Part shown: positions 498-47,276 of the stretch, in pieces
Layout: every line of letters starts with the position of its first letter
How positions within the stretch are numbered: position 1 is the stretch's first letter
Origin: Octopus vulgaris
Lineage: Eukaryota
Reading direction: 5' to 3'
Length of the DNA stretch: 64,000 nucleotides
Assembly: GCA_951406725.2 (NCBI GenBank)
Contig: OX597833.1
Location: forward strand, 45,074,001-45,138,000
Notes under the pieces: generated by a model
Databases searched by the model: none
What the model was told of the DNA's origin: nothing
Seen by the model: only the letters and a program-made list of their open reading frames with translations
Made by a program: the position numbers and the translations under genes

Positions 498-854
498 ACA
501 TAAATACATAAGTATATATATATATATATATATGGTGCATATCCATATATATAAATAAATATATACACATACATAGAAACTTGCACACATGTATGTGTGG
601 GTGAGCGTACATACGTATAGGCTACATGTATATCAGCCAGTATTCTTTCTCATTCTATAACGTTTTCACGATAAATATGCTGATTAAAACATACTTGTGT
701 ATTAGTATGGCATATAAAATTGCAGACTTGTGTAATCATAGATATATATAAATAACCAAGTTTGTATGTGTGTGTGTAAATGTTTTAAATATTTTTTCTA
801 AGTGAAAACAATGCAATTTATAAATATTGATAACACAGGTTGATGGTTACTTAT

Positions 855-881
855 GGGTGATGGTGGTGGCATTCAACGTAC
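855..881 (-). pseudogene. 27-nt micro-exon slot with both splice sites lost
   Basis: Same flanks as the intact slots, but the acceptor reads ctccatAT and the donor ATaagt. Phase-0 reading GTA CGT TGA contains a stop. Confidence 0.45.
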
Positions 882-1217
882 ATATGGAGAAAAAGAGATG
901 AGATACATGTGTATAGTGCATATACAGATAAATATATTCTCATACATAGAGACATGTGCACATATGAGTGTGTTTGTACATTCATATGTATAGGCCACAT
1001 GTATATCAGCCAGTATCTTATTTCATCAACAAAGATTAAAATATACGTGTTTATTAGTATCAGCCAGTATCTTTTCTCTTTGTATAATGTTTAAAAAGAA
1101 ATATGCTGATGAAAATATACGTGTGTATTAATATGGCATTAATAATTAATTAGAATAATAATTTCTACATTTATGAATTTGTGTTGCAAGATTCCTTGTG
1201 TGAAACTGTGTTGAAAG

Positions 1218-1656
1218 ATATTGCTGCATATGGTGATGGTCATATTTTTTTGCTTTTTGCCAAATAGATATGTGCACTATATATTCGTTCTTCCCCCATT
1301 TATTACTGTTCTTACTCTAACTCATGTCCATCATCCAGACACCTTTTGTCACACATCTGTGACCTCTTCAGTGACACTTTCCGTATTCATGTTTGCTCTT
1401 GCTCTGCTTATTCCATTCTGTTCTTCTATGATGTGTCACATCATAAAAAAAAACAGAATGGAATGAGCAGAAGAAGAGCACACACGAATGTAGAAAGTGT
1501 GGCTGAAGAGGTCAGAGATGTGTGACAAAAGGTATCCAGACAATGGACTTAAGTTAGAATAAGAAGAGTAATAAACAAGTGAAGATCAGATATGTAGTGC
1601 ATGTGTCTATTTGGCCAAAAAAGGAAAATAATGAGCATCCCAAATGACAACAATAT
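1218..1656. mobile_element. ~440-bp fully palindromic hairpin element (MITE-like)
   Basis: Arms pair around tatgatgtgtcacatcata (~1428-1446), e.g. ccttttgtcacacatctgtgacctcttcag / ctgaagaggtcagagatgtgtgacaaaagg. Confidence 0.75.
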
Positions 1657-2101
1657 AATCATAATAATTAAACATTATGAATTCTTCTTGTAAGCTTGTT
1701 TCACTATGTGGCCTGCATACATTATCCATATCTTATTTATTATTGTACTTAAATTCATCATACTTTTATCTAAGAGTCTACCACAAAAAGCAATGAATGA
1801 GAAGAAAAATCATATCTTTAGCAGCCATTTATGGAAAATCTGTCTGTGATAGGCGGAAACTAAAAATACATTTGAAATCAGCATAAAAAATAGTTCTGAA
1901 TCACTGAATAACCTATAAACAAACAATCAGCACTTATTTCATCTAAAAGTGCAGTTGTGTAATTATAGATATATAAAATTAATCATGTGTGTGAGTATGT
2001 GTGTGCATGTGTGTGTGTAGATATATATATACATTTCTGTGTGTATGTGTTTGTGTATCTGTATGTGTGTGTGTGTTTGCATCTGTGTGTGTGTGTGAAA
2101 A

Positions 2102-2320
2102 AATCATCCAATGTTCTGTAATGAGGACCACAGACATGAAGTGTTTCAAATTACAAGACACCATGTGAGAGAAAATCGCGATGTCATTGGAGCATAATGT
2201 GTCCACATGGATGATGGCTCACTTGCATTCAATATTGCTGCAAAGAGAGAGAAAGTCAAACTGTTCAACCCATGACAGCAAGGAATGTGGACGTTAAACA
2301 ACGACGATGCCGATGATGAC
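2102..2320 (+). mobile_element. Internally deleted old RTE fragment (mid-ORF piece fused to 3' terminus)
   Basis: gtgagagaaaatcgcgatgtcattggag...atggatgatggctcacttgcattcaat matches the RTE ORF, then runs directly into ggacgttaaac plus a degenerate (gat)n tail. Duplicate copy at ~15020-15237. Confidence 0.7.
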
Positions 2321-2406
2321 TATGTTAATGTTTTAAATATGTTTTCTAAGCCAAAACAATGCAGTTATAAATATAAATAATATAGGTTGATGATTAGTTC
2401 CCTTAC

Positions 2407-2430
2407 CTGTCTTGCAGCAGGATGGCTCAT
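2407..2430 (-). CDS. Candidate 24-nt micro-exon
   Basis: ctctttttctccatag|atgagccatcctgctgcaagacag|gtaagg. Canonical splice sites, length a multiple of 3. Confidence 0.5.
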
Positions 2431-2802
2431 CTATGGAGAAAAAGAGATGAGACATATATAGTATATATAGTGTATCATTCAACTACAGCAGTAGCTGAAT
2501 AATATTCTTAAGGACGCAATTTACACACACGCAGCACCTTTCAGAGCTTGTCACTAATTCAGTTCTTAACTAAATGGAAAACCAGTAGATGAAAATTGGT
2601 CCAGTAGAAAAATGTTTACAATAAAATTTGGAGTGACATTATAGGAGACTAAATAACACCACCAGTCAAGTTTAGATCTAAATAAAGCAAAATATATTCA
2701 TCTTAGCTTCAATGACAGAAGAAAGCATGAAGAATGTCATAGTTTTGTACCCATGCAACAAAAATTTGTATAAAAAAAGTTGGGAGGTAAAATATGAAAA
2801 TT

Positions 2803-5800
2803 CACTATCATTTCTTCCCCTGACTTGCAGCGATGTCCATGAGCAGGCTAAGATTTCTCGCTTCTATTTCATACATACATACATACATTTGTCTACCGTT
2901 TAAATGTTTTGAACTTATAACCACCAATCTGCTTTGCTTTCCTTTTCTCTCTACATGCCACCCTAAAAACATCGCCATTCCCGCCCGTTTCTCTAAAGTT
3001 CAACCTTCGCATATTCCCTTTAATTCGATCTCCACCATTCACTATCATTTCTTCCCCTGACTTGCAGCGATGTCCATGAGCAGGCTAAGATTTCTCGCTT
3101 CTATTTTCATACATACATACATTTGTCTACCGTTTAAATGTTTTGAACTTATAACCACCAATCTGCTTTGCTTTCCTTTTCTCTCTACATGCCACCCTAA
3201 AAACATCGCCATTCCCGCCCGTTTCTCTAAAGTTCAACCTTCGCATATTCCCTTTAATTCGATCTCCACCATTCACTATCATTTCTTCCCCTGACTTGCA
3301 GCGATGTCCATGAGCAGGCTAAGATTTCTCGCTTCTATTTCATACATACATACATACATTTGTCTACCGTTTAAATGTTTTGAACTTATAACCACCAATC
3401 TGCTTTGCTTTCCTTTTCTCTCTACATGCCACCCTAAAAACATCGCCATTCCCGCCCGTTTCTCTAAAGTTCAACCTTCGCATATTCCCTTTAATTCGAT
3501 CTCCACCATTCACTATCATTTCTTCCCCTGACTTGCAGCGATGTCCATGAGCAGGCTAAGATTTCTCGCTTCTATTTCATACATACATACATACATTTGT
3601 CTACCGTTTAAATGTTTTGAACTTATAACCACCAATCTGCTTTGCTTTCCTTTTCTCTCTACATGCCACACTAAAAACATCGCCATTCCCGCCCGTTTCT
3701 CTAAAGTTCAACCTTCGCATATTCCCTTTAATTCGATCTCCACCATTCACTATCATTTCTTCCCCTGACTTGCAGCGATGTCCATGAGCAGGCTAAGATT
3801 TCTCGCTTCTATTTTCATACATACATACATTTGTCTACCGTTTAAATGTTTTGAACTTATAACCACCAATCTGCTTTGCTTTCCTTTTCTCTCTACATGC
3901 CACCCTAAAAACATCGCCATTCCCGCCCGTTTCTCTAAAGTTCAACCTTCGCATATTCCCTTTAATTCGATCTCCACCATTCACTATCATTTCTTCCCCT
4001 GACTTGCAGCGATGTCCATGAGCAGGCTAAGATTTCTCGCTTCTATTTTCATACATACATACATTTGTCTACCGTTTAAATGTTTTGAACTTATAACCAC
4101 CAATCTGCTTTGCTTTCCTTTTCTCTCTACATGCCACCCTAAAAACATCGCCATTCCCGCCCGTTTCTCTAAAGTTCAACCTTCGCATATTCCCTTTAAT
4201 TCGATCTCCACCATTCACTATCATTTCTTCCCCTGACTTGCAGCGATGTCCATGAGCAGGCTAAGATTTCTCGCTTCTATTTCATACATACATACATTTG
4301 TCTACCGTTTAAATGTTTTGAACTTATAACCACCAATCTGCTTTGCTTTCCTTTTCTCTCTACATGCCACCCTAAAAACATCGCCATTCCCGCCCGTTTC
4401 TCTAAAGTTCAACCTTCGCATATTCCCTTTAATTCGATCTCCACCATTCACTATCATTTCTTCCCCTGACTTGCAGCGATGTCCATGAGCAGGCTAAGAT
4501 TTCTCGCTTCTATTTTACATACATACATACATTTGTCTACCGTTTAAATGTTTTGAACTTATAACCACCAATCTGCTTTGCTTTCCTTTTCTCTCTACAT
4601 GCCACCCTAAAAACATCGCCATTCCCGCCCGTTTCTCTAAAGTTCAACCTTCGCATATTCCCTTTAATTCGATCTCCACCATTCACTATCATTTCTTCCC
4701 CTGACTTGCAGCGATGTCCATGAGCAGGCTAAGATTTCTCGCTTCTATTTCATACATACATACATACATTTGTCTACCGTTTAAATGTTTTGAACTTATA
4801 ACCACCAATCTGCTTTGCTTTCCTTTTCTCTCTACATGCCACCCTAAAAACATCGCCATTCCCGCCCGTTTCTCTAAAGTTCAACCTTCGCATATTCCCT
4901 TTAATTCGATCTCCACCATTCACTATCATTTCTTCCCCTGACTTGCAGCGATGTCCATGAGCAGGCTAAGATTTCTCGCTTCTATTTCATACATACATAC
5001 ATTTGTCTACCGTTTAAATGTTTTGAACTTATAACCACCAATCTGCTTTGCTTTCCTTTTCTCTCTACATGCCACCCTAAAAACATCGCCATTCCCGCCC
5101 GTTTCTCTAAAGTTCAACCTTCGCATATTCCCTTTAATTCGATCTCCACCATTCACTATCATTTCTTCCCCTGACTTGCAGCGATGTCCATGAGCAGGCT
5201 AAGATTTCTCGCTTCTATTTCATACATACATACATACATTTGTCTACCGTTTAAATGTTTTGAACTTATAACCACCAATCTGCTTTGCTTTCCTTTTCTC
5301 TCTACATGCCACCCTAAAAACATCGCCATTCCCGCCCGTTTCTCTAAAGTTCAACCTTCGCATATTCCCTTTAATTCGATCTCCACCATTCACTATCATT
5401 TCTTCCCCTGACTTGCAGCGATGTCCATGAGCAGGCTAAGATTTCTCGCTTCTATTTTCATACATACATACATTTGTCTACTGTTTAAATGTTTTGAACT
5501 TATAACCACCAATCTGCTTTGCTTTCCTTTTCTCTCTACATGCCACCCTAAAAACATCGCCATTCCCGCCCGTTTCTCTAAAGTTCAACCTTCGCATATT
5601 CCCTTTAATTCGATCTCCACCATTCACTATCATTTCTTCCCCTGACTTGCAGCGATGTCCATGAGCAGGCTAAGATTTCTCGCTTCTATTTTACATACAT
5701 ACATACATTTGTCTACCGTTTAAATGTTTTGAACTTATAACCACCAATCTGCTTTGCTTTCCTTTTCTCTCTACATGCCACCCTAAAAACATCGCCATTC

Positions 5801-8800
5801 CCGCCCGTTTCTCTAAAGTTCAACCTTCGCATATTCCCTTTAATTCGATCTCCACCATTCACTATCATTTCTTCCCCTGACTTGCAGCGATGTCCATGAG
5901 CAGGCTAAGATTTCTCGCTTCTATTTTCATACATACATACATTTGTCTACCGTTTAAATGTTTTGAACTTATAACCACCAATCTGCTTTGCTTTCCTTTT
6001 CTCTCTACATGCCACCCTAAAAACATCGCCATTCCCGCCCGTTTCTCTAAAGTTCAACCTTCGCATATTCCCTTTAATTCGATCTCCACCATTCACTATC
6101 ATTTCTTCCCCTGACTTGCAGCGATGTCCATGAGCAGGCTAAGATTTCTCGCTTCTATTTCATACATACATACATACATTTGTCTACCGTTTAAATGTTT
6201 TGAACTTATAACCACCAATCTGCTTTGCTTTCCTTTTCTCTCTACATGCCACCCTAAAAACATCGCCATTCCCGCCCGTTTCTCTAAAGTTCAACCTTCG
6301 CATATTCCCTTTAATTCGATCTCCACCATTCACTATCATTTCTTCCCCTGACTTGCAGCGATGTCCATGAGCAGGCTAAGATTTCTCGCTTCTATTTCAT
6401 ACATACATACATACATTTGTCTACCGTTTAAATGTTTTGAACTTATAACCACCAATCTGCTTTGCTTTCCTTTTCTCTCTACATGCCACCCTAAAAACAT
6501 CGCCATTCCCGCCCGTTTCTCTAAAGTTCAACCTTCGCATATTCCCTTTAATTCGATCTCCACCATTCACTATCATTTCTTCCCCTGACTTGCAGCGATG
6601 TCCATGAGCAGGCTAAGATTTCTCGCTTCTATTTTACATACATACATACATTTGTCTACCGTTTAAATGTTTTGAACTTATAACCACCAATCTGCTTTGC
6701 TTTCCTTTTCTCTCTACATGCCACCCTAAAAACATCGCCATTCCCGCCCGTTTCTCTAAAGTTCAACCTTCGCATATTCCCTTTAATTCGATCTCCACCA
6801 TTCACTATCATTTCTTCCCCTGACTTGCAGCGATGTCCATGAGCAGGCTAAGATTTCTCGCTTCTATTTCATACATACATACATACATTTGTCTACCGTT
6901 TAAATGTTTTGAACTTATAACCACCAATCTGCTTTGCTTTCCTTTTCTCTCTACATGCCACCCTAAAAACATCGCCATTCCCGCCCGTTTCTCTAAAGTT
7001 CAACCTTCGCATATTCCCTTTAATTCGATCTCCACCATTCACTATCATTTCTTCCCCTGACTTGCAGCGATGTCCATGAGCAGGCTAAGATTTCTCGCTT
7101 CTATTACATACATACATACATTTGTCTACCGTTTAAATGTTTTGAACTTATAACCACCAATCTGCTTTGCTTTCCTTTTCTCTCTACATGCCACCCTAAA
7201 AACATCGCCATTCCCGCCCGTTTCTCTAAAGTTCAACCTTCGCATATTCCCTTTAATTCGATCTCCACCATTCACTATCATTTCTTCCCCTGACTTGCAG
7301 CGATGTCCATGAGCAGGCTAAGATTTCTCGCTTCTATTTCATACATACATACATTTGTCTACCGTTTAAATGTTTTGAACTTATAACCACCAATCTGCTT
7401 TGCTTTCCTTTTCTCTCTACATGCCACCCTAAAAACATCGCCATTCCCGCCCGTTTCTCTAAAGTTCAACCTTCGCATATTCCCTTTAATTCGATCTCCA
7501 CCATTCACTATCATTTCTTCCCCTGACTTGCAGCGATGTCCATGAGCAGGCTAAGATTTCTCGCTTCTATTTACATACATACATACATTTGTCTACCGTT
7601 TAAATGTTTTGAACTTATAACCACCAATCTGCTTTGCTTTCCTTTTCTCTCTACATGCCACCCTAAAAACATCGCCATTCCCGCCCGTTTCTCTAAAGTT
7701 CAACCTTCGCATATTCCCTTTAATTCGATCTCCACCATTCACTATCATTTCTTCCCCTGACTTGCAGCGATGTCCATGAGCAGGCTAAGATTTCTCGCTT
7801 CTATTTCATACATACATACATACATTTGTCTACCGTTTAAATGTTTTGAACTTATAACCACCAATCTGCTTTGCTTTCCTTTTCTCTCTACATGCCACCC
7901 TAAAAACATCGCCATTCCCGCCCGTTTCTCTAAAGTTCAACCTTCGCATATTCCCTTTAATTCGATCTCCACCATTCACTATCATTTCTTCCCCTGACTT
8001 GCAGCGATGTCCATGAGCAGGCTAAGATTTCTCGCTTCTATTTCATACATACATACATACATTTGTCTACCGTTTAAATGTTTTGAACTTATAACCACCA
8101 ATCTGCTTTGATTTCCTTTTCTCTCTACATACCACCCTAAAAACATCGCCATTCCCGCCCGTTTCTCTAAAGTTCAACCTTCGCATACTCCCTTTAATTC
8201 GATCTCCACCATTCACTATCATTTCTTCCCCTGACTTGCAGCGATGTCCATGAGCAGGCTAAGATTTCTCGCTTCTATTTCATACATACATACATACATT
8301 TGTCTACCGTTTAAATGTTTTGAACTTATAACCACCAATCTGCTTTGCTTTCCTTTTCTCTCTACATGCCACCCTAAAAACATCGCCATTCCCGCCCGTT
8401 TCTCTAAAGTTCAACCTTCGCATATTCCCTTTAATTCGATCTCCACCATTCACTATCATTTCTTCCCCTGACTTGCAGCGATGTCCATGAGCAGGCTAAG
8501 ATTTCTCGCTTCTATTTCATACATACATACATACATTTGTCTACCGTTTAAATGTTTTGAACTTATAACCACCAATCTGCTTTGCTTTCCTTTTCTCTCT
8601 ACATGCCACCCTAAAAACATCGCCATTATCGCCCGTTTCTCTAAAGTTCAACCTTCGCATACTCCCTTTAATTCGATCTCCACCATTCACTATCATTTCT
8701 TCCCCTGACTTGCAGCGATGTCCATGAGCAGGCTAAGATTTCTCGCTTCTATTTCATACATACATACATACATTTGTCTACCGTTTAAATGTTTTGAACT

Positions 8801-11509
8801 TATAACCACCAATCTGCTTTGCTTTCCTTTTCTCTCTACATGCCACCCTAAAAACATCGCCATTCCCGCCCGTTTCTCTAAAGTTCAACCTTCTCATATT
8901 CCCTTTAATTCGATCTCCACCATTCGCTATCATTCTTCCCCTGACTTGCAGCGATGTCCATGAGCAGGCTAAGATTTCTCGCCTCTATTTCATACATACA
9001 TACATACATTTGTCTACCGTTTAAATGTTTTGAACTTATAACCACCAATCTGCTTTGCTTTCACTTTCTCTCTACATGCCACCCTAAAAACATCGCCATT
9101 CCCGCCCGTTTCTCTAAAGTTCAACCTTCGCATATTCCCTTTAATTCGATCTCCACCATTCACTATCATTTCTTCCCCTGACTTGCAGCGATGTCCATGA
9201 GCAGGCTAAGATTTCTCGCTTCTATTTCATACATACATACATACATTTGTCTACCGTTTAAATGTTTTGAACTTATAACCACCAATCTGCTTTGCTTTCC
9301 TTTTCTCTCTACATGCCACCCTAAAAACATCGCCATTCCCGCCCGTTTCTCTAAAGTTCAACCTTCGCATATTCCCTTTAATTCGATCTCCACCATTCAC
9401 TATCATTTCTTCCCCTGACTTGCAGCGATGTCCATGAGCAGGCTAAGATTTCTCGCTTCTATTTCATACATACATACATACATTTGTCTACCCTTTAAAT
9501 GTTTTGAACTTATAACCACCAATCTGCTTTGCTTTCCTTTTCTCTCTACATGCCACCCTAAAAACATCGCCATTCCCGCCCGTTTCTCTAAAGTTCAACC
9601 TTCGCATATTCCCTTTAATTCGATCTCCACCATTCACTATCATTTCTTCCCCTGACTTGCAGCGATGTCCATGAGCAGGCTAAGATTTCTCGCTTCTATT
9701 TCATACATACATACATACATTTGTCTACCGTTTAAATGTTTTGAACTTATAACCACCAATCTTCTTTGCTTTCCTTTTCTTACTACATCCCACCCAAAAA
9801 ACATCCCCTTTCCCGCCCTTTTCTCTAAAGTTCAACCTTCGCATATTCCCTTTAATTCGATCTCCACCATTCACTATCATTTCTTCCCCTGACTTGCAGC
9901 GATGTCCATGAGCAGGCTAAGATTTCTCGCTTCTATTTCATACATACATACATACCATTGTCTACCGTTTAAATGTTTTGAACTTATAACCACCAATCTG
10001 CTTTGCTTTCCTTTTCTCTCTACATGCCACCCCAAAAACATCGCCATTCCCGCCCGTTTCTCTAAAGTTCAACCTTCGCATACTCCCTTTAATTCGATCT
10101 CCACCATTCACTATCATTTCTTCCCCTGACTTGCAGCGATGTCCATGAGCAGGCTAAGATTTCTCGCTTCTATTTCATACATACATACATACATTTGTCT
10201 ACCGTTTAAATGTTTTGAACTTATAACCACCAATCTGCTTTACTTTCCTTTTCTCTCTACATGCCACCCTAAAAACATCGCCATTCCCGCCCGTTTCTCT
10301 AAAGTTCAACCTTTGCATATTCCCTTTAATTCGATCTCCACCATTCACTATCATTTCTTCCCCTGACTTGCAGCGATGTCCATGAGCAGGCTAAGATTTC
10401 TCGCTTCTATTTCATACATACATACATACATTTGTCTACCGTTTAAATGTTTTGAACTTATAACCACCAATCTGCTTTGCTTTCCTTTTCTCTCTACATG
10501 CCACCCTAAAAACATCGCCATTCCCGCCCGTTTCTCTAAAGTTCAACCTTCGCATATTCCCTTTAATTCGATCTCCACCATTCACTATCATTTCTTCCCC
10601 TGACTTGCAGCGATGTCCATGAGCAGGCTAAGATTTCTCGCTTCTATTTCATACATACATACATACATTTGTCTACCGTTTAAATGTTTTGAACTTATAA
10701 CCACCAATCTGCTTTGCTTTCCTTTTCTCTCTACATGCCACCCTAAAAACATCGCCATTCCCGCCCGTTTCTCTAAAGTTCAACCTTCGCATATTCCCTT
10801 TAATTCGATCTCCACCATTCACTATCATTTCTTCCCCTGACTTGCAGCGATGTCCATGAGCAGGCTAAGATTTCTCGCTTCTATTTCATACATACATACA
10901 TACATTTGTCTACCGTTTAAATGTTTTGAACTTATAACCACCAATCTGCTTTGCTTTCCTTTTCTCTCTACATGCCACCCTAAAAACATCGCCATTCCCG
11001 CCCGTTTCTCTAAAGTTCAACCTTCGCATATTCCCTTTAATTCGATCTCCACCATTCACTATCATTTCTTCCCCTGACTTGCAGCGATGTCCATGAGCAG
11101 GCTAAGATTTCTCGCTTCTATTTCATACATACATACATACATTTGTCTACCGTTTAAATGTTTTGAACTTATAACCACCAATCTGCTTTGCTTTCCTTTT
11201 CTCTCTACATGCCACCCTAAAAACATCGCCATTCCCGCCCGTTTCTCTAAAGTTCAACCTTCGCATATTCCCTTTAATTCGATCTCCACCATTCGCTATC
11301 ATTTCTTCCCCTGACTTGCAGCGATGTCCATGAGCAGGCTAAGATTTCTCGCTTCTATTTCATACATACATACATACATTTGTCTACCGTTTAAATGTTT
11401 TGAACTTATAACCACCAATCTGCTTTGCTTTCCTTTTCTCTCTACATGCCACCCTAAAAACATCGCCATTCCCGCCCGTTTCTCTAAAGTTCAACCTTCG
11501 CATATTCCC
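2803..11509. repeat. Tandem array of ~37 near-identical 233-237-bp units
   Basis: Unit attcactatcatttcttcccctgacttgcagcgatgtcc...ttcgatctccacc repeated head-to-tail. Length variation lies almost entirely in the internal T-run/(cata)n. The last unit is truncated at 11509. Confidence 0.98.
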
Positions 11510-12004
11510 GGTGCACCCGCCCTTGCCCACCCCCACCACCAATACCGGATATCTCTATATTTTTGTTCCATCTATACCGGATGTCGCTTCTCCCACCACC
11601 ATTATAGGTGTCTACTCTTCGAACCCCCCTCTCAGCACGCTATTTCACCATGCATTACCCCTCTCTTGATATCCTACGTTCTACTTGCCTAGAACCTGTC
11701 ATCATTTCTCTGAACCACCCCTCCCCACTGGTGCTCCCCTATATATTTCTATACCCCCCCCCCACATAAAAAGCACCATCCGAACGTGGCCGATGCCAGA
11801 CCCCTCTGGCACCTGTGCAGGTGGCACGTAAAAAACACCCACTACACTCGCGGAGTGGTTGGCGTTAGGAAGGGCATCCAGCTGTAGAAACACTGCCAGA
11901 CTAGACTGGAGCCTGGGGCAGTCCCGAGCTCCCCAGACCCCGGTCGAAACCGTCCAACCCGTGCTAGCGCGGAAAACGGACGTTAAACGATGATGATGAT
12001 GAAG
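2803..12004 (+). mobile_element. Composite non-autonomous retroposon: tandem array + C-rich linker (11510-~11766) + RTE 3' end and (GAT)n tail (~11767-12004)
   Basis: The flanks atatgaaaatt| and |gcataaaattg are separated by only 12 bp in the paralogous empty site at 15709-15742. The 3' ~240 bp match the RTE 3' UTR. Confidence 0.8.
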
Positions 12005-13860
12005 GCATAAAATTGAATTTAAGCATAAATAACTTTTTTGTTTTAAAAACAAGCTATATTTTAATCAACCAATAATGCCAAAATTTTACTAGAGAATGAA
12101 ATTGCCTGAAAATTCACAGATACTATTATTTTGACCTAAATAATAACTGAAAAAAAATTTCATTGAAATCTGTTTGATACCGATTGCATACACATTAATA
12201 ACACCTTCCATACTGTGATACTGATCATACAGAAATCACAATTTGTATCAAGTATTTGTTTCACACCCTTTAAATTAAGTGCCAGTTGAAATGGACAATC
12301 AGTATGAATGGGTAAAGCTGAATTCCTATTTTCAACTTCCTAATTATTAATTAATAATTAAAAAAATATTTTAATTCTTTACTTTTAAAAGAAGTAACAA
12401 TTAATAACAAATAAATGTAATAAAGTGTAATAAAATTTTTAGTTTTAATAAATACTAATATTTTCTAAATCTAAATACTTCATTTGAACTTCTATCCTTA
12501 GCTGCAATATTTTAAGTAAAATCTTCTTGTTCTGTACTTTACCAGATGTAATAACTAGTCCTGAACTTTTCCAAGTGTAATAATAGGTCCTCTAATTTTC
12601 CAGGTTTATAAGCTTAAGAATATTATTTCTATTCCTCATATTTTTCCATGTAATATATATAGATAGTTAGGTTGAGATATACATATATATACACACATGC
12701 ATCCATACAAGCATGTAGATATACATATGTGTGTGTGTGTGTGTGTGTGTATGTATAGGCCACATGCTTACCAGCTGGTCAGTCTGTCTCACTACACAGT
12801 GTTTATACAATAAACATGCTGAGTAAAATGTACACGTTAAGAATAATTATTGTAATAATAATAACTAGCAGATCCCTTAAACATTTGACAGAATCAACAG
12901 TCGATTTCATGGCTTATTTGTGAAAACTTTACCCTAAAACTCTAAAAGCGTAGCCTGGGTTGTGTTTGTGTGAAAAGATGGTAAACATTCATTTTAGAAA
13001 TATATTCTTTATTCTTATTATTTAAGCATTACTCCCTCATTTCCTTACTGACATGAAATTTCGTAACATTTTACTTCACGACTCTTTTTCTACTTATTTT
13101 TGGTCAATGCAACTAGCGATTCTTAATTCCTCGTGCATTTTTCTATCATTTAAGACTAAGAAAAGTATACTTTTAATTTAAAATTTTAAAATTTATGTTA
13201 ATTGAAGATGAATATCTGCCTACTGCTCATCACCCACCTTGAGGTCACATTATATTTTAATGTAACTTTTTTCTACTGAACAAAGTCTCAAACTATTTAT
13301 GCCAAACTATAGCTGAGGAGGTGACCTCTTTAAAACTATTAACAGTTTGCAATTTAGTTGAGAACTGAATTAGTGGTGAAGCTTGGAAGCTGCTGTGTTT
13401 GATGAAATGGTGGACTTGAGAATATATTCAGCCAGTACCGTGGTTGAATGATATTAGAACTTCTTGGAAGCTCAATCAAATTGCTGGCCTACATACGTTA
13501 TTCACATCATTTCTTATTATTGATCTCGTCTTTTGTTCTTAATTTCATCATACTTTTACTTAGAAGTCTGCCACAAAAGGCAACAAAATAACCTGTAAAA
13601 TCATATCTTTATCAAACATATATGAAATATCTGTATGTAATAGGCAAATGTTAAAACCATTATTGAAATCAGTATGAAAAATAGTTCAGAATCACCTATA
13701 AGTAGACATTCATACTTTATTTCATTTAAAATTGCAAACTTGTGTAATCATAGATATTTATAAATAACTGTGTTTGTGTGTGTAAATGTTTTAAATATTT
13801 TTTCTAAGTGAAAACAATGCAATTTATGAATATTAATAACACAGGTTGATGGTTACTTAT

Positions 13861-13887
13861 GGGTGATGGTGGTGGCATTCAACATAC
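13861..13887 (-). pseudogene. 27-nt micro-exon slot with both splice sites lost
   Basis: ctccatAT|gtatgttgaatgccaccaccatcaccc|ATaagt. Paralog of 855-881 with a phase-0 stop. Confidence 0.45.
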
Positions 13888-14141
13888 ATATGGAGAAAAA
13901 GAGATGAGATACATGTATATAGTGCATATATAGATAAATATATTCTCATACATAGAGACATGTGCACATATGTGTTTGTACATCCATATGTATAGGCCAC
14001 ATGTATATCAGCCAGTATTTCATCAACAAAGATTAAAATGTATGTGTGTATTAATATGGCATCAATAATTAATTAGAATAATAATTCTATATTTATAAAT
14101 TTGTGTTGCAAGATTCTCCATGTTATACTATTATTTGAAAC

Positions 14142-14575
14142 ATATTGCTGCATATGGTGATGGTCATATATTTTTGTTTGCCAAATAGATACGTGCACTA
14201 TATATTCGTTCTTCCCCCATTTATTACTGTTCTTACTCTAACTCATGTCCATCATCCAGATACCTTTTGTCACACATCTGTGACCTCTTCAGTGACACTT
14301 TCCGTATTCGTGTTTGCTCTTGCTCTGCTTATTCCATTCTGTTCTTCTATGATGTGTCACATCATAAAAAAAAACAATGGAATGAGCAGAAGAAGAGCAC
14401 ACACGAATGCAGAAAGTGTTGCTGAAGAGGTCAGAGATGTGTGACAAAAGGTATCCAGACAATGGACTTAAGTTAGAATAAGAAGAGTAATAAACAAGTG
14501 AAGATCAGATATGTAGTGCATGTGTCTATTTGGCCAAAAAAGGAAAATAATGAACATCCCAAATGACAACAATAT
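14142..14575. mobile_element. Palindromic MITE-like hairpin, duplicate copy
   Basis: Paralog of 1218-1656. A half copy lies at ~18419-18715. Confidence 0.75.
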
Positions 14576-15323
14576 AATCATAATAATTAAACATTATGAA
14601 TTCTTCTTGTAAGCTTGTTTCACTATGTGGCCTGCATACATTATCCATATCTTATTTATTATTGTACTTAAATTCATCATACTTTTATCTAAGAGTCTAC
14701 CACAAAAAGCAATGAATGAGAAGAAAAATCATATCTTTAGCAGCCATTTATGGAAAATCTGTCTGTGACAGGCGGAAACTAAAAATATATTTGAAATCAG
14801 AATAAAAAATAGTTCTGAATCACTGAATAACCTATAAACAAACAATCAGCACTTATTTCATCTAAAAGTGCAGTTGTGTAATTATAGATATATAAAAATA
14901 ATCATGTGTGTGTATGTGTGTGCATGTGTGTGTGTAGATATATATATACATTTGTGTGTGTATGTGTTTGTGTATCTGTATGTGTGTGTGTGTTTGCATC
15001 TGTGTGTGTGTGTGAAAAAATCATCCAATGTTCTGTCATGAGGACCACAGACTTGAAGTGTTTCAAATTACAAGACACCATGTGAGAGAAAATCGCAATG
15101 TCATTGGAGCATAATGTGTCCACATGGATGATGGCTCACTTGCATTCAATATTGCTGCAAAGAGAGAGAAAGTCAAACTGTTCAACCCATGACAGCAAGG
15201 AATGTAGACGTTAAACAACGACGATGCCGATGATGACTATGTTAATGTTTTAAATATGTTTTCTAAGCCAAAACAATGCAGTTATAAATATTAATAATAT
15301 AGGTTGATGATTAGTTCCCTTAC

Positions 15324-15347
15324 CTGTCTTGCAGCATGATGGATTAT
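15324..15347 (-). CDS. Candidate 24-nt micro-exon
   Basis: ctccatag|ataatccatcatgctgcaagacag|gtaagg. Differs from 2407-2430 by three substitutions. Confidence 0.5.
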
Positions 15348-18082
15348 CTATGGAGAAAAAGAGATGAGACATATATAGTATATATAGTGTATCATTCAAC
15401 TACAGCAGTAGCTGAATAATATTCTTAAGGACGCAATTTACACACACGCAGCACCTTTCAGAGCTTGTCACTAATTCAGTTCTTAACTAAATGGAAAACC
15501 AGTAGATGAAAATTGATCCAGTAGAAAAATGTTTACAATAAAATTTGGAGTGACATTATAGGAGACTAAATAACACCACCAGTCAAGTTTAGATCTAAAT
15601 AAAGCAAAATATATTCATCTTAGCTTCAATGACAGAAGAAAGCATGAAGAATTTCATAGTTTTGTACCCATGCAACAAAAATTTGTATAAAAAAAGTTGG
15701 GAGGTAAAATATGAAAATTAATATAAGTAATGCATAAAATTGAATTTAAGCATAAATAACTTTTTTGTTTTAAAAACAAGCTATATTTTAATCAACCAAT
15801 AATGCCAAAATTTTACTAGAGAATGAAATTGCCTGAAAATTCACAGATACTATTATTTTGACCTAAATAATAACTGAAAATAAATTTCATTGAAATCTGT
15901 TTGATACCGATTGCATACACATTAATAACATCTTCCATACTGTGATACAGATCATTCAGAAATCACAATTTGTATCAAGTATTTGTTTCACACCCTTTAA
16001 ATTAAGTGTCAGTTGAAATGGACAATCAGTATGAATGGGTAAAGCTCAATTTGACAGAGCTCAATTCAAGGAATTTCATAGTATCAATCTCATGCAATGA
16101 AGTTCTAAAAGAAAATACTTATGAGTGTTTGTTTCTCAAATTTCAGGGTGATAATATAATTCTAAGACACTGTGAGGAATTTCATAGTTTTCATCTCATT
16201 AAATTAAACATTCTATTTATTGTTTTTGTATATCAATTAAAAAATAAAATTTACACACTCATAAATCTTTCACATTCATAATTTCGTTGACAATGTACAT
16301 TTGTATTTTAATCAGTTGCCTTTTAATTGCTCTAATTTTCACTTTTCATCTGTCTCTCTCTTCTTTACTAGGCTTGTTAATATAAAGGTCATAGCACAAT
16401 TTCTTCTGCAATTTATAAAACGTTTTTTTTATCTTGAAAACATTCGTTATATTAAAATTATTTTGTTAATTAATTTTAATTAATATATTATTATTGTACT
16501 AACTAATTATGTACTAGAATTATTTTTTATAACCTATTTTCAACTTCCTAATTATTAATTAATAATTAAAAAAATATTTTAATTCTTTATTTTTAAAAGA
16601 AGTAACAAGCAATAACAAATAAATGTAATAACGTGTAATAAAATTTTTAGTTTTAATAAATGCTAATATTTTCTAAATCTAAATATTTCATTTGAACTTC
16701 TATCCTTAGCTGCAATATTTTAAGTAAAATCTTCTTGTTCTGCACTTTACCAGGTGTAATAACTAGTCCTGAACATGTCCAAGTGTAATAATAGGTCCTG
16801 TAATTTTCCAGGTTTATAAGCTTAAGAATATTATTTCTATTCCTCATATTTTTCCATGTAATATATATAGAGATATAGTTAGGTTGAGATATACATATAT
16901 ATACACACATGCATCCATACAAGCATGTAGATATACATGTGTGTGTGTGTGTGCGTGTGTGTGTGTGTGTATAGGCCACATGTGTACCAACTGGTCAGTC
17001 AGTCTCACTACACAGTGTTTATACAATAAACATGCTGAGTAAAATGTACATGTTAAGAATAATTATTGTAATAATAATAACTAGCAGATCCCTTAAACGT
17101 TTGAAAGAATCAAAAGTCGACTTCATGGCTTATTTCTGAAAACTTTACCCTAAAACTCTAAAAGCGTAGCCTGGGTTGTGTTTGTGTGAAAAGATGGTAA
17201 ACATTCATTTTAGAAATATATTCTTTATTCTCATTCTTGGAGCATTACTCCCTCATTTCCTTACTGACATGAAATTTCGTAACATTTTACTTCACGACTC
17301 TTTTTCTACTAATTTTTGTTCAATGCAACTAGCGATTCTTAATTCCTCGTGCATTTTTCTATCATTTAAGACTAACAAAAGTATACTTTAAATATAAAAT
17401 TTTAAAATTTATGTTAATTGAAGATGAATATCTGCCTACTGCTCATCACCCACCTTGAGGTCACATTATATTTTAATGTAACTTTTTTCTACTGAACAAA
17501 GTCTCAAACTATTTATGCCAAACTATAGCTGAGGAGGTGTCCTCTTTAAAACTATTAACAGTTTGCAATTTAGTTGAGAACTGAATTAGTAGTGAAGCTT
17601 GGAAGCTGCTGTGTTTGATGAAATGGTGGACTTGAGAATATATTCAGCCAGTACTGTGGTTGAATGATATTAGAACTTCTTGGAAGCTCACTAAAATTGC
17701 TGGCCTACATACATTATTCACATCATTTCTTATTATTGATCTCGTCTTTTGTTCTTAATTTCATTATACTTTTACCTGGAAGTCTGCCACAAAAGGCAAC
17801 AAAATAACCAGTAAAATCATATCTTTACCAAACATTTATGAAAAATCTGTATGTGATAGGCAAAGATTAAAACCATTATTGAAATCAGTATGAAAAATGG
17901 TTCAGAATCACCTATAAGTAGACAATCATAATTTATTTCATTTAAAATTGCAGACTTGTGTAATCACAGATATTTATAAATAATTGTGTTTGTATGTGTG
18001 TCTGTAAATGTTTTAAATATTTTTTCTTAGTGAAAACAATGCAATTTATAAATTTCAATAACACAGGTTGATGGTTACTTAC

Positions 18083-18124
18083 GTAAGGCATTGGCTTCCT
18101 GCATTGAGTCTTTCTCATGCATAC
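18083..18124 (-). CDS. Candidate 42-nt micro-exon
   Basis: cttctttttctccatag|gtatgcatgagaaagactcaatgcaggaagccaatgccttac|gtaagt. Confidence 0.5.
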
Positions 18125-18881
18125 CTATGGAGAAAAAGAAGTGATATATACATATATATATATATATAGTGTATATATAGATAAATATATACTCATACAT
18201 AGAGACATGCACACACATGTGTGTGTTTGTGCATTCATACGTATAGGCTACATGTATATCAGCCAGTATCTTTTCTCTTTGTATAATGTTTAAAAAGAAA
18301 TATGTTGATGAAAATATACGTGTGTATTAATATGGCATTAATAATTAATTAGAATACTAATGTCTACATTTATGAATTTGTGTTGCAAGATTCCTTGTGT
18401 GAAACCGTGTGTTGAAAGATATTGCTGTACATGGGGATGGTCATACTTTTTTCGTTTTTTGCCAAATAGATACGTGCACTATATATTCGTTCTTCACACA
18501 TTTATTACTGTTCTTACTCATGTCCATCATCCGGAAACCTTTTGTCACACATCTGTGACCTCTTCAGCAACACTTACTGTATTTGTGTGTGCTCTGCATA
18601 TTCCATTCTAAGACCTCTTCAGTGACACTTTCCGTATTCATGTGTGCTCTCGCTCTGCTTATTCCATTTTGTTCTTCTATCGTGGGTCACATATAATGGG
18701 TCACATCATAGAAGAAGACAATCATAATTTATTTCATTTAAAATGGCAGACTTGTGTAATCACAGATGTTTATAAATAACTGTGTTTGTGTGTGTGTGTG
18801 TGTAAATGTTTTAAATATTTTTTTCTAAGTGAAAACAATGCAATTAATAAATATTAATAACACAGGTTGATGGTTACTTAC

Positions 18882-18926
18882 CTGGAATATTCCTGCCTGA
18901 GTGTCATCAGTGTTTCTTATGCATAC
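18882..18926 (-). CDS. Candidate 45-nt micro-exon
   Basis: cttccttttctccatag|gtatgcataagaaacactgatgacactcaggcaggaatattccag|gtaagt. Open only in phase 0 (VCIRNTDDTQAGIFQ). Confidence 0.5.
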
Positions 18927-18950
18927 CTATGGAGAAAAGGAAGTGAGATA

Positions 18951-21900
18951 ATCATCATCATCATCATCGTTTAATGTCCGTTTTCCGCGCTAGCACAGGT
19001 TCGACCGTGGTCTGGGAAGCAAGGAGGCTGCACCAGGCTCCAGTCTGATCTGGCAATGTTTCTACAGCTGGATGCCCTTCCTAACGCCAACCACTCCGTG
19101 AGTGTAGTGGGTGCTTTTTACGTTTCACCGGCACAGGTGCCAGGGGAGTCTGGCAGCGGCCATGATTGGTTGGTGCTTTTAACGTGCCACTGGCACGGAA
19201 GCCAGTCGAGGCGACACTGGCATCGGCCACATTCGGACGGTACTTTTTACATGCAACCGGCACAGAAGCCAGTTAAGGCAGCGCTGGCATCAGCCACGTT
19301 CGGATGGTGCTTTTTATGTGCCACCAGCACAGGTATTACAACTACTATTTCCATTGATATTTATTTCGATGTTCATGTACTTGACTCAATAGGTCTCCTC
19401 AAGCACAGCGGGTTGTTCTGAAATCCAAGGTACTTTGAATGGGCTGGGGCTATGCGGAGCTGGTGCAGGAAGCAGCCCGGGTCTTTGCAGTCACAGCATA
19501 TCTCCAGAGATCTCGGTCCTTCGTCATTGCCTCTGTGAGGCCCAATGCTCTGAGGTCATGCTTGACTACCTCATCCCATGTCTTCCTGGGTCTACCTCTC
19601 CCCCTGATACCTTCAACTGTTTGGGAGTGGCACTTCTTCACACATCTCTCCTCATCCATCCACAGTACATGACCATACCATCGCAAGCGTCGCTCTTGCA
19701 CACCACATCTGATGCTTCTTATGTCCAGCATTTCTCTCAGGGTGCTTACACTCTGTCGTGCGTGCACACTGACATTACACATCCAGCGGATCATGCTAGC
19801 TTCATTTCTTTCAAGTCTACGCATGTCCTCTGCAGTCACAGCCCATGTTTCACTGCCGTGAAGCATGGCAGTTCACACACATGCATCATACAATCTACCT
19901 TTCACTCTGAGCGAGAGACCCTTTGTTGCCAGTAGGGGTAGGAGCTTTCTAAACTTTGCCCAGGCTATTCGTATTCTAGTGGTGACACTCTCTGAGCATC
20001 CACCTCCACAACTATCTTGGTCACCTAGGTAGCGGAAACTATCAACTACTTCTAGTTTCTCCCCCTGGAGTGTGATGGAATCTGTTTTCTGAGTATCTGT
20101 GGTGTCTATTGTCCCGGTGCATCTGCCGCACATGAAAGCTATCTTATCAGTTACTTTCCCTTTGATGTTGCTGCACCTCTTATGCGTCCATAGCTTACAG
20201 TGGGTACATCTTATGGAGTTTCTACCTACACCTTTCCTACAGATCAAGCAGGGCCACCTGCTCGAGGGGACGTGTGCTGAGTTCGCCTTTCTGCTTACTA
20301 TAACTTTGGTCTTTGCTACATTTACTCTAAGGCCCTTTGATTCTAAACCTTGCTTCCACACCCGAAATTTCTTTTCTAGTTCCGGTAGTGATTCTGCTAT
20401 GAGAGCCAGGTCATCAGCATAGAGGAGCTCCCAGGGGCAACCTGTTTTGAATTCCTCTGTTATTGCCTGAAGGACTATGATGAATAAAAGGGGACTGAGG
20501 GCTGAACCTTGGTGTACACCTACTTCTACCCGGAATTCTTCACTATATTCATTGCCAATCCTAACCTTGCTGACAGCCCCTCTGTATAGGGCCTGTACAG
20601 CCCTTATTAGCCATTCGTCAATCTCCAGTTTCCATATCGACCACCAGATAAGGGATCGGGGGACCCTGTCAAAGGCTTTCTCCAAGTTCACAAAAGCTAT
20701 GTAGAGGGGTTTATCTTTAGCTAGGTATTTCTCCTAGCTATGTCGGACCAGGAATATAGCATCAGTGGTGCTTCTGCCTGGCACAAAATCGAACTGCATC
20801 TCATCTAAGCAAATTCTCTCCCTAATGAGATGGGTTATGACCCTCTCTGTGACCTTCATCACCTGATACAACAGTTTAATACCCCTGTAGTTATTTCTAT
20901 CTAGAGCATCACCTTTACCCTTGTAGCAGTTGACTATGGTGCTGCTACTCCAGTCATTGGGTATGACTCCATTGTGAACTACCTGGTTTACAATGCGGGT
21001 GACTAGGCCATAGCCCACACAACCAGTTGTTTTAAGCATCTCAGCAGTGATTCCTGATGGGCCAGGGGCTTTTCCTGGTTTCATACTCTTAATTGCCTTA
21101 ACTACAAGGGAGCTGTCTATTTGGATAGCTGGTCCCTCTACCGGGTCAACATTTGGCAGGCTCTCCTCCTCCCATTCATTCTCCACATTCAGCTGTCTTT
21201 CATAATGGCTTCTCCAAGCCTCTTTCTTTTCACAATCATTAAAAGCAAGTGCACCATCATCCATACGGATACATTTCTCTCCTGTAACATCACTATTTTC
21301 TCTCACACACTGTCTAGCAATCCGAAATACCTCGGTTCTTTGGTCCTCACATTGCTGGACATTGGCAAACTTCTTTTCTGCTACATCTTTGGCTATGTAT
21401 ACCTGCCGCCCAGCCTCCCTTTTGGCTACCTGGTACAGTTCCCTGCTACCCCCATCCCTCCAGGCTTTCCGGCCTGTTTCTTTGCTCTAATGGCTTTGTC
21501 TACTGTACTATTCCACCACCATGTAACTTTAGGTCTGGAAGGGACTTTGCACCATCCACAGACTTGGTCTGTGGCACTCAGCAAGCTGTCCCGTAGGAAT
21601 TTCCAGCTACCTTCTATGTCCGATGTCTGTAGCTCCTCATCCCTCACATCAAATTTCTTGATGAGGATGTCCCTAAATCTCTGACCATGTGAAGGGTTCT
21701 TTAGCTTCCAAATCCTTCCTTTCTGGATTGGTCTGTTTCTTGGTATCCTTCTGGTCTCAAGCCTAAAGTCACTAATGATTAGCCTATGATGAGGAGTACA
21801 TTCTTCACCCGGGAGGGTCTTTGTATTTAAGAGCAACCCTGCATCCCGCTGTCTGGTGAGGATGAAGTCTATTTCGCTAGCGGAGTCCCCTGACTGATAG

Positions 21901-22475
21901 GTTATAAGGTGGTAGTCTGGCTTCCTGAAGTTAGTGTTTCAGATTAAAAGGTTACATGCATCACAGAATTCCAGTAGTCTAGTTCCCTCATCATTTCTGG
22001 TGCCAATACCATGGCCACCGTGTACCCAAGTGAATATACCCGATTCCCGCCCAACATGCCCATTAAAGTCTCCACCCACAAAGATGAGGTCTTTGCCACT
22101 CGTCTTTGAGGTAGCCTGTAGAAGGGTATCATAAAAGTGGTCCTTCTGATCATTTGGTAGCCCCGCATGTGGGGCATAGGCAGGGATAATCGTAGCTGTG
22201 CCACTCTGTAGGACTAAACTGAGCTTAAGCACTCTATCGCAAACCCTGACAATCTCTATGACCTTATCCACCCATTTCTCTGCAAGGAGAATGCCTACAC
22301 CCCCTACACCATCCATGTTACCTTGCCAGAAGACTTTATACCTATGTGCCTTGCCTGTGAGGACCCTACCTGAAGCACATCTCCATCTTACCTCTTGTAT
22401 GCAGCATACATCAACCCGTCTTCTCTCAAGCATCTCTACAATCTCACTACACCTACCTTTCAGTGTACCAACACT
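18951..22475 (-). mobile_element. RTE-clade LINE, nearly complete ORF (APE endonuclease + RT + PHD-like Cys motif), frameshifted, lacking 5' UTR
   Basis: ORF pieces VGTLKGR..CIQEVRW..GDFNGHVG (APE), KAFDRVPR, GVHQGSALSPLLF, LLYADDL (RT), CLICRKGVGRNSIRCTHC. (cat)n tail at 18951. Confidence 0.95.
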
Positions 22476-22672
22476 GATATATATATATATATATATATAT
22501 ATAGATAAATATATACTCATACATATAGAGACATGCACAATTGTGTGTGTTTGTGCATTCTTATGTATAGGCCACATGTATATCAGCCAGTATCTTTTCT
22601 CTTTGTATAATGTTTAAAAAGAAATATGTTGATGAAAATATACGTGTGTATTAATATAGCATTAAAATTAAT

Positions 22673-24925: not shown

Positions 24926-24974
24926 AGCCAGTGCGGATGCGCGTGCAACAGGACCACTCTTCTTGAATAGTACC
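24925..24974. mobile_element. Terminal fragment of the MULE-like MITE family seen at 39933-40214
   Basis: gcggatgcgcg...caggaccactcttcttgaatagtacc matches the right TIR at ~40158-40214. Confidence 0.6.
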
Positions 24975-31309: not shown

Positions 31310-31463
31310 CTTAACACTGTCTCCTGCAGCTTCAAGTAACGGCTTAACCAGATTTATATAGTTCTTAATAATGGCCAGATGTAGTGGACTATGACCTTCA
31401 TCATTTTGTATATTGACTTTAGCCCCATAGTTCAGCATTAAGCTCATCACCTCAAGATGGTTG
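31310..31463 (-). CDS. Ankyrin-repeat protein, exon (154 nt, phase 2 to 0)
   Basis: tttcag|C AAC CAT...NHLEVMSLMLNYGAKVNIQNDEGHSPLHLAIIKNYINLVKPLLEAAGDSVK|gtgagt. Contains the ankyrin motif G-x-S/T-PLHLA. Confidence 0.88.
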
Positions 31464-32096: not shown

Positions 32097-32146
<50 letters not shown>

Positions 32147-36814: not shown

Positions 36815-36972
36815 CCAAGCACAGCATAATGTAAGGGTGTAAAGCCATTTTTATCAAATGCATTTACATTGCATTGAGCATTGTTTTCTATCAGCAATTT
36901 CACTGTAGCTATGTCACCCAGCCGACAAGCAATAGACAGGAAACTTAGACCACATACACTGTTTTGAGGAAT
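36815..36972 (-). CDS. Ankyrin-repeat protein, exon (158 nt, phase 0 to 2)
   Basis: tctctgcag|IPQNSVCGLSFLSIACRLGDIATVKLLIENNAQCNVNAFDKNGFTPLHYAVLG|gtaagt. GG plus the first C of the next exon gives Gly. Not in the ORF track. Confidence 0.9.
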
Positions 36973-39129: not shown

Positions 39130-39236
39130 CAAACGTGGATTTTGTGTGAAACATTGTTTAATCCATCTACTATCACCCTGAATAAGCTTACATAAAATAT
39201 CATTCTCAGTATAAAAATAACCATCAATATCTTGAC
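39130..39236 (-). CDS. Ankyrin-repeat protein, upstream exon (107 nt, phase 1 to 0)
   Basis: tttctttctcttaccag|(G)QDIDGYFYTENDILCKLIQGDSRWIKQCFTQNPRL|gtaagc. Phase matches the 36972 acceptor. Confidence 0.8.
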
Positions 39237-43575: not shown

Positions 43576-45236
43576 ATGTACATATATAAAACCAGTATTA
43601 CATATACTAGCAGAAACCCCACCCCAAAACACTAACCATATAATTCCATTGCTATATAAAAATGTAACCAAGTTTAAATTAAGAAAATTAACACCTTACC
43701 AACGTCACCCATAATTTTGTTGTTATGTCACCGGTGTAAGAATCTCCGAGCCAGAGTCGTAGATAGTTCGATCTCTGTTTGCAATATAGAGTGCAAAGCG
43801 CAGTATCGTCTGTTCATAGGGCACTCACATTTAAATGGCGATAAACATTACCTCTCAGTATAAATATTACTGCCGTCTCCAACAGAGATTTTCTTAACGA
43901 GCTGCCTTTTCTTTTTAATCTCTAATTAGTTTTGTCTTTCTCTCAAGCTGTGTCCGCCTATCACACAAGTTATCGCGGATTTTTCTTTTGCTGACAGATA
44001 TTTAGAAAATTTACATTTAAGTGAATCCTTCCAATTAGATATATTCAGGCAATGCTGGCAACACTTCCGCGTTCTTAAAACTGAAACTATTTGTTCGGCA
44101 ATTTTCGTAAATATTTATTTTTCAGCTGAACCGCTTATGTTTATGTAATTTTTTGTATATGTATGTGTTTATGTGCATGTGTGAAACGCATACATACAGA
44201 AATATACATACATGCACATAAATACATACATATACTTATATACATAAATATACATTCACACGCGCGCGAAAAAGTTTTACGGAAATTGCCGAACAAAGAA
44301 CGTCACTTTTCACGGCCCTTTTCCGAAAGAATTCGGTAATTTTTCACGCTCAATCCGTCTTTGAAATTCATTTGGATCTTTTCGGTTTGAACGGCAGTTT
44401 TTCACATAATTTCTCGGTAACTAAAAAGTTTTAAACTTCGTATACTGGTAGAATGTGTTTATAAAACATCCTTTTCTCTTTGCTTTATTGAGAAAATTCT
44501 ATAGTTTGTAAGATATTTTCTTCAATTTTGGCAATTTCAATAACTTAAAAATGTGCAGTCATACAGACCGTCTGCAAATGCGCACGTGCAGCAAACTGAC
44601 AGGTGTAAAATTATCTCCGTCCAATCAAAAAACAGCCATTTTGCCATTTATAGATATAGAGATTTTAAGCAAAAGTTTAGAAATTCTCTGGGAAACTGGA
44701 AAATCCAGAATCCGGGACAGATCCGGTCCTAAATTGGATAAATTGGTCTGGTACAGTATTGAGGTGTGGTGCACAACAAAGGGAAGGAAATGCAGAGTTT
44801 TAATGAGTTACTTCCCTTGCAATGGTTTAATTCTTTTTAGATTAAACTGCTGGATTAAGTGAGTTATGTCCCTTGTATTAAAGACTCGTTACCTGAAACA
44901 TAAGGGGTCGGTTTATCGATTTTTTAAAAATAGCTTTCAGGGGTAACTGGGGAAATGAAAAGATCTTCACAACCACCCTTGGACGGTTTTGAATGACCAT
45001 AGAAAGTGCGAGCCCTCTAACTGAAAAATTGTGGATTTGTATAAAGGACACTCACACACAGACAGATATTTTGCCGTTTATATATAGAGAGATTTGGGGC
45101 AAAAATGACTTTCATTTTCATAATCAGAATACATAAGTGCAGTGCACACCAAATTTGAACAAAATAGAAACCAAATAAAAATTAAAAATAGAAAACTGTG
45201 ACAGCAACAGAAAAGATCCAAGTGCTTTATACCATA

Positions 45237-47233: not shown

Positions 47234-47276
47234 TCTTGGAGAACATCAAGAAAGTTTAATAAGATGAAACAGAATT

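Follow-up and report, generated by a model that had tools for sequence, protein, structure and literature searches.

A stretch of 64,000 nucleotides (nt) from Octopus vulgaris (G000:C20:45074001-45138000; hereafter the window) carries, inside an intron of a gene encoding ankyrin repeats and two RINGs, an array of short modules in which a variable slot is held between conserved flanks. It is probable that these six modules, together with four in an inverted paralog, are duplicated copies of one arm of a repeat resembling a miniature inverted-repeat transposable element (MITE), that the 45-nt centre of this arm turned, in gene models, into a coding micro-exon which preserves the frame, and that its copies have likely been driven apart by positive selection on a loop predicted to be disordered. 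Two of the slots (45 and 42 nt) are already annotated as exons, and the transposon origin, the history of the array and its fast turnover appear to be undescribed; a literature search, with subscription papers outside its scope, returned nothing on the locus, on octopus MITE exonization or on this ankyrin-RING family.

The original prediction, made from the letters alone, had assigned six modules to a cephalopod-like genome, and all six were recovered on the minus strand, with slots of 27, 24, 27, 24, 42 and 45 nt (Table 1); neither self-BLAST nor a profile search found a seventh in the window. The array spans an intron stretch of 41,675 nt between two phase-0 ankyrin exons. AG and GT frame the slot in four of the six modules, all of them open in the required phase-0 frame, while the modules at 855 and 13861 read AT/slot/AT and meet a stop at codon 3 in phase 0. 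Because both splice sites are lost in these two, their slot lengths are set by flank register alone. When the paralog is included, all seven modules with AG and GT have lengths divisible by 3 and an open phase 0, which is the sole frame open across all seven; taking four independent lineages, the rough chance of this frame and length pattern is 0.002. Phases 1 and 2, which would give a Cys-Cys or mucin-like reading, were rejected because some live slots then hold stops and the host introns are of phase 0. Recursive splicing at slots beginning with GT was likewise considered and found unsupported, since gene models translate those slots. In the dead cassettes (13861, 855 and a paralog copy at G000:C20:44987614), acceptor and donor have been lost together, beyond what flank divergence suggests, and this joint loss in two independent dead cassettes possibly reflects selection to silence them.

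Table 1. Modules, repeat-derived segments and host exons, with positions counted in the window unless a contig is named.
Feature	Position	Strand	Remarks
45-nt phase 0-0 micro-exon, 15 amino acids (aa)	18882..18926	-	AG/GT, open only in phase 0; equal in length and homologous to repeat centre
42-nt phase 0-0 micro-exon, 14 aa	18083..18124	-	AG/GT, phase 0 open; in P0123/P0008
24-nt candidate micro-exon, 8 aa	15324..15347	-	AG/GT, phase 0 open
27-nt dead copy (pseudo-exon)	13861..13887	-	both splice dinucleotides altered, stop at codon 3 in phase 0
24-nt candidate micro-exon, 8 aa	2407..2430	-	AG/GT, phase 0 open; resembles third cassette of O. sinensis X2
27-nt dead copy, duplicate of 13861	855..881	-	splice dinucleotides altered, stop at codon 3; 1/27 nt differ
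Fold-back (MITE-like) repeat arm: acceptor, 45-nt slot, donor, downstream flank	18796..18948	-	27-copy profile, model positions 35-194, E 2.4e-15
Shorter remnants of repeat arm	17999-18078, 15238-15326, 13778-13856, 2321-2409, 772-850	-	
Segmental duplicate of 14031-15707, bearing second 24-nt module	1108..2790	+	97% identical; self-BLAST
Host exon 4 (ankyrin repeat), upstream of array	31310..31463	-	ends in phase 0; matches P0123
Host exon 3 (ankyrin repeats)	36815..36972	-	
Host exon 2	39130..39236	-	5' part varies between paralogs and species
Host coding exon 1	43700..43712	-	
Host exon 5 onward (ankyrins, two RINGs)	left of window, G000:C20:45063634 down to 45043418	-	

By its sequence, the whole module is one arm of a dispersed fold-back repeat, the centre of which is well conserved in other copies. 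The flank search recommended in the original prediction yielded 15 matches on other contigs with the donor-side flank as query. A query taken from one dispersed copy, with 40 of 357 candidates scored, recovered at least 47 matches spread over many contigs. The resulting alignment comprises 27 of the 30 returned loci, L057, L074 and L079 being excluded as only part of the query matched, and L055 and L080 represent two arms of a single element. An inverted arm lies just upstream in 18 of the 27 loci, giving long terminal inverted repeats, which is why the repeat is regarded as a fold-back, MITE-like element. It covers the whole module, from the pyrimidine tract through the centre to a CAG/GTAA-like donor; its ends are old and run into simple repeats. 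An Rfam search of three loci returned no match. The centre is 45 nt long in 22 of the 27 dispersed copies. Among all 27, 7 have the AG, 14 the GT and 6 both, and in only 3 does phase 0 remain free of stops.

Without gaps, the 45-nt slot agrees with the majority centre in 23 of its 45 positions (shuffle mean 12, P 0.0003), a level well under that of the dispersed copies, and its donor flank matches the repeat at 80%, as against 84% for the dispersed copies, so that slot and flanks differ in their distance from the repeat (p 0.003). Inspected by eye, the 15 flank-only matches hold the full ancestral centre in 9 cases, its 3' half in 3 and no centre in 3, and none of them has intact flanks around a new slot. 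When the genome was scanned with a pattern that left the centre free, 9 matches came up: 6 at this locus, where the centres are new, and 3 in other places, where the centre is the ancestral one. In a flank-only tree of 95 columns, a single clade (support 98/95) unites the ten modules and leaves out five dispersed copies, and a profile search over 354 kb found exactly these ten, six in the window and four in the paralog. Since the module is a recently duplicated arm of a dispersed fold-back repeat, its flanks are alike. The original prediction had also envisaged, as a case that would overturn it, a dispersed transposon whose centre simply varies, and this applies by half: the dispersed arm proved real, but its centre is conserved elsewhere and varies only here. 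Three repeat copies (L084 and L085 at G000:C2:91899050 and 91905058, L086 at C6:59364506) have intact AG and GT around an ancestral centre of 45-46 nt and are candidates for latent or young exons.

Gene models of two species, O. vulgaris and O. sinensis, splice the slots in frame. P0123 (640 aa) and P0008 contain the 45- and 42-nt slots between exons 4 and 5, and the 45-nt slot is used in P0123, P0008, P0001 and P0121, with an identical copy in the paralog model P0131. The three cassettes of O. sinensis isoform X2 match the slots at 18882 (14/15 residues), 18083 (11/14) and 2407 (7/8), the last of which is not in the retrieved O. vulgaris models. The expectation of symmetric coding micro-exons made by duplication is upheld by these models, in which 45-, 42- and, in O. 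sinensis, 24-nt slots are used in frame. Isoform X1 keeps the first cassette, followed by two related 12-aa units that were not found in six frames of the 354 kb (best match 6/12 residues). In a comparison by eye that took in P0121, P0001 and P0124, the live 24-nt slots end in Gln (CAG); because the first eight residues of each X1 unit end in Gln likewise, these units may be 8+4 cassettes. Cassettes occur in tandem in the models, as 45+42 or 45+42+24, and the two O. sinensis isoform models differ in their cassettes, an annotation that suggests combinatorial splicing. The linker of O. bimaculoides is unrelated in sequence and similar in length, and its start resembles, by eye, the O. sinensis N-terminus.

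A protein search with an ankyrin exon of the host gene retrieved a 100% identical Octopus vulgaris protein labelled 'E3 ubiquitin-protein ligase MIB2-like'; the next large ankyrin exon after that at 31310-31463 (exon 5) lies 10.4 kb left of the window and begins in phase 0. In both proteins submitted to Pfam, ankyrin and RING families alone were reported, with two RING stretches; the host protein is a predicted ankyrin-RING ubiquitin ligase. Mind bomb E3 ligases (MIB1/MIB2), which act on Notch ligands, possess N-terminal Mib_Herc2-ZZ-Mib_Herc2 and REP domains, and like the octopus protein they have ankyrin repeats followed by C-terminal RINGs. No Mib_Herc2, ZZ or REP domain appeared in the Pfam results for the two host proteins; as these N-terminal domains are absent, the host does not count as a genuine Mind bomb. 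The 3' part of the protein gave at least 142 exon-level matches on many contigs (among them C1, C26-C31, C8 and C10, with dense clusters on C29, C31 and C1), for which reason the ankyrin-RING family is considered large and expanded in octopus. A related family gene on C8, of which 60 kb were read, shares the exon layout of the host gene but lacks the repeat arm.

The cassettes sit where one ankyrin repeat closes, ahead of the next hairpin, and are predicted to form a disordered loop between two ankyrin blocks. In a structure model built on a 5-sequence alignment (mean predicted local distance difference test score, pLDDT, 65.7), residues 144-181, which correspond to the cassette region, lie between helical ankyrin blocks with pLDDT below 50, a value that is weak evidence of disorder because the RING region is below 50 as well. 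Fold matches were generic ankyrin proteins, with the MIB1 ankyrin structure 8v0e at rank 16.

The case for selection derives from rates of change. The two 24-mers of the window, rightly described at the outset as differing at 3 of 24 nt within a near-identical duplication (the segments are 97% identical), contrast with 4 differences in 500 nt of their 250-nt flanks (Fisher p 0.0026), and all three changes alter the amino acid. Pairs of 24-mers between the paralogs differ at 14/24 versus 17/391 flank positions and at 12/24 versus 19/391, so that live 24-nt slots overall differ by 12-58% and their flanks by 0.8-4.9%; 7 of 8 residues differ between paralogs in the 24-nt cassettes. The dead pair, on the other hand, shows no slot excess (1/27 versus 8/240), and the 45-nt pair between paralogs is identical (0/45 versus 8/172 in the flank). 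The initial claim that flanks are better kept than slots consequently holds for the live 24-mers and fails for the dead and 45-nt pairs: an excess was found in three of five equal-length pairs tested, two of the three sharing the B3 copy of the paralog. Relative to the repeat centre, the 45-nt slot has 22 changes, of which 9, 9 and 4 hit the first, second and third codon positions (p 0.036). A comparison of O. vulgaris with O. sinensis X2 gives 5 differences in the 37 residues of the linker and 7 in the 464 of the ankyrin body (p 0.0009). The ankyrin exons also differ between paralogs more than introns do (55/795 versus 473/13123 nt), their proportion of nonsynonymous differences (pN, 0.073) being twice the intron rate. 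Moreover, the heads of exon 2 (39130-39236) and of exon 5 (L042), which are not repeat-derived modules, differ strongly between paralogs and species, and the introns adjoining them differ at about 1 in 150 positions.

Several observations weigh against this reading. In the paralog exons pN does not significantly exceed the proportion of synonymous differences (pS; 0.073 versus 0.058, p 0.74), and in the 24-mer pairs between paralogs pS reaches 0.57 against a pN of 0.59 at about 4.5 synonymous sites, a high pS that counts against a purely protein-level account. Because it is identical between paralogs and keeps 14 of 15 residues in O. sinensis, the 45-nt slot is now conserved and not hypervariable. 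Ankyrin hairpin positions show no clear concentration of changes (p 0.10 after restriction) and none in the comparison with the other species, and an apparent enrichment (p 0.017) was discarded as an artefact of misaligned repeats. The slot at 15324 occurs in none of the 11 Octopus proteins retrieved and paralog slots B3 and B4 in no retrieved protein, and inclusion and skipping of slots are read from gene-model annotation. Given the five sequences behind the structure model, low pLDDT may not signify disorder. Finally, the identity of dispersed centres to their majority (mean 88%, minimum 78%) is inflated by a query that included the centre, and the two unbiased controls, the 15 flank-only matches and the free-centre pattern, are small.

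A somewhat unlikely alternative is that the exons are real and repeat-born, with their fast change reflecting stop removal, tuning of splicing enhancers and the tolerance of a floppy linker, devoid of any role in binding diversity. New mammalian exons are reported to outpace their flanking introns, which is read there as tuning of inclusion or coding (10.1101/009282); a 24-mer pS as high as pN, a gene-wide pN not above pS and the present stasis of the oldest slot would all fit such an account. Against it, change persists long after birth, given the three residue-altering recent changes of three and the 7 of 8 residues that differ between paralogs; furthermore, tolerance alone cannot exceed the intron rate, which the ankyrin exons likewise double. 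It is decidedly unlikely that a mutational process is responsible, be it gene conversion preserving the likeness of the flanks, or a process that is RNA-templated or exon-targeted and raises exon change whatever its coding effect. Introns adjoining exons 2-5 do differ by only about 1% between paralogs versus 3.6% overall, pS is elevated in the slots, and exon differences are biased towards A/G (23) over C/T (10; p 0.035), compared with 136 and 133 in introns. Conversion nevertheless leaves unexplained a slot far from its repeat ancestor beside a flank at normal distance, third codon positions are the best kept, and the A/G excess, one of several tests tried, is also expected from conservative amino-acid changes. 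That the slots are no exons at all, but a duplicated transposon fragment with a decayed centre taken up by gene predictors, is very improbable: the module is indeed a repeat arm and two of six window copies are dead, yet the same slots are spliced in frame in two species that were annotated independently, frame and length are conserved, and centres are conserved in copies elsewhere.

Under the preferred reading, that of a repeat-born array diversified by selection, the repeat arm already holds a latent pyrimidine tract with an AG-like site, a 45-nt centre and a CAG/GTAA donor. An insertion in the phase-0 intron 4 would have gained the AG, lost its stop and been spliced in. Intronic segments were subsequently duplicated, as their sequences indicate, giving rise to new cassettes that shrank or grew by whole codons. 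Selection would then have driven amino-acid change in live cassettes, while stop-bearing copies lost their splice sites. Judging from annotation, cassettes may be included in tandem or skipped, whereby the loop would vary by isoform, paralog and species; through such a loop, a ubiquitin ligase of an expanded ankyrin-RING family in octopus would change in the substrates or partners that it binds.

The array had been likened to the micro-exon genes (MEGs) of Schistosoma, for which two sources describe short symmetric exons, lineage-specific duplication, fast protein change and a link to transposons (PMC4350168, PMC8293314). Symmetric, frame-preserving short exons are common to both, those of octopus being of phase 0-0 and 24-48 nt long. 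MEGs also yield pools of variants by alternative splicing and have raised dN/dS; in octopus, the two O. sinensis isoform models carry different cassettes, and pN is twice the intron rate though not significantly above pS. However, MEGs consist mostly of micro-exons and are flatworm-specific, with secreted or surface products, whereas the octopus slots contribute 29 of 640 aa in P0123 and 37 of 722 aa in P0001, about 5% of an ankyrin-RING protein; in MEGs, moreover, a transposon flanks the duplicated exon, while in octopus the exon itself is the transposon centre. The N-terminus of the host protein is acidic and without a hydrophobic stretch indicative of a signal peptide, as judged by eye and from its ankyrin and RING content. 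Since the coding share is small and secretion features are absent (signal peptide by eye), the octopus array is not a Schistosoma-type micro-exon gene. In its working it resembles both a small cassette set of the MEG type and the exonization of Alu and other repeats with subsequent tandem duplication of exons. In such exonization, latent splice sites also yield a new cassette exon, and new exons can outpace flanking introns (10.1101/009282). Most new exons are nevertheless single, non-coding or minor, whereas the octopus exon gave rise, by multiplication, to a coding array in which some members are live and others dead and whose content differs between species. Conotoxins are a known case of exons evolving faster than introns. 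The same was described for recent duplicates of snake venom and serum protein genes (PMC6609765). These cases concern whole genes for secreted proteins, while in octopus the unit is a cassette within a gene and the protein is likely intracellular. Dscam employs tandem duplicated cassettes as variable recognition segments, with equal-sized domain halves chosen one at a time; the octopus models, in contrast, hold two or three cassettes in a row. The neural microexon programme (SRRM4/eMIC) is marked by a UGC enhancer just upstream of the acceptor and by deep conservation, whereas in octopus no TGC was seen by eye in the 40 nt upstream of the four live acceptors and the O. bimaculoides linker is unrelated.

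Besides the pair listed in Table 1, self-BLAST revealed that 12325-14340 duplicates 16533-18609 at 90%. The inverted paralog, about 80 kb leftward (G000:C20:44968500-45020463, L033-L038), holds four modules, namely one dead 27-mer, a 45-mer identical to that at 18882, a 24-mer, and a 48-mer whose GT is weak; its model P0131 includes the 45-mer only and stops at an assembly gap. Exons 1-5 of this paralog are open; exon 1 carries an insertion of 3 nt that keeps the frame, and exon 5 is three ankyrin repeats short. The paralog ends at a gap of 100 N, and its 3' exons are absent from the assembly. Because it ends at this gap, the paralog may be an uncollapsed allele, a reading against which a second, different 3' model in O. 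sinensis (P0122) counts. Imperfect palindromes of about 440 bp at 1218-1656 and 14142-14575, carried along in the duplicated segments, are likely another fold-back element. An insertion splits the duplicated intron segment: it is a dispersed element which bears at its tail, at 2800-11509, a 237-bp unit repeated 36.9 times with 98% similarity between copies. The head of this element (11763-12002) recurs at 32854-33084, and the tail duplicated in a similar element at about 31640-33090 is a different one. Decayed fragments of long interspersed nuclear element reverse transcriptase or endonuclease were recognized by eye at 19450-22600, 23250-25000, 26200-27900, 47250-48400 and 59200-61260, as was a transposase-like fragment at 52397-52705.

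With respect to function, a role in host-pathogen conflict is possible though doubtful, being a guess from fast evolution and family expansion. It is rather unlikely that the transposon-built cassette library provides an intracellular ankyrin-RING receptor-ligase with an interchangeable, fast-evolving recognition loop, whose combinatorial splicing would vary targets between cells, individuals and species; octopus innate immunity would then have an equivalent of micro-exon diversification on the side of the host. The locus makes the birth of a micro-exon array visible, as one transposon arm supplies acceptor, exon and donor before duplication and fast change set in. Since dispersed copies represent the ancestral state and dead cassettes a neutral control, selection on new exons is directly testable here. 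Beyond this single gene, the array points to rapid evolution in a large, unstudied ankyrin-RING gene family of octopus.

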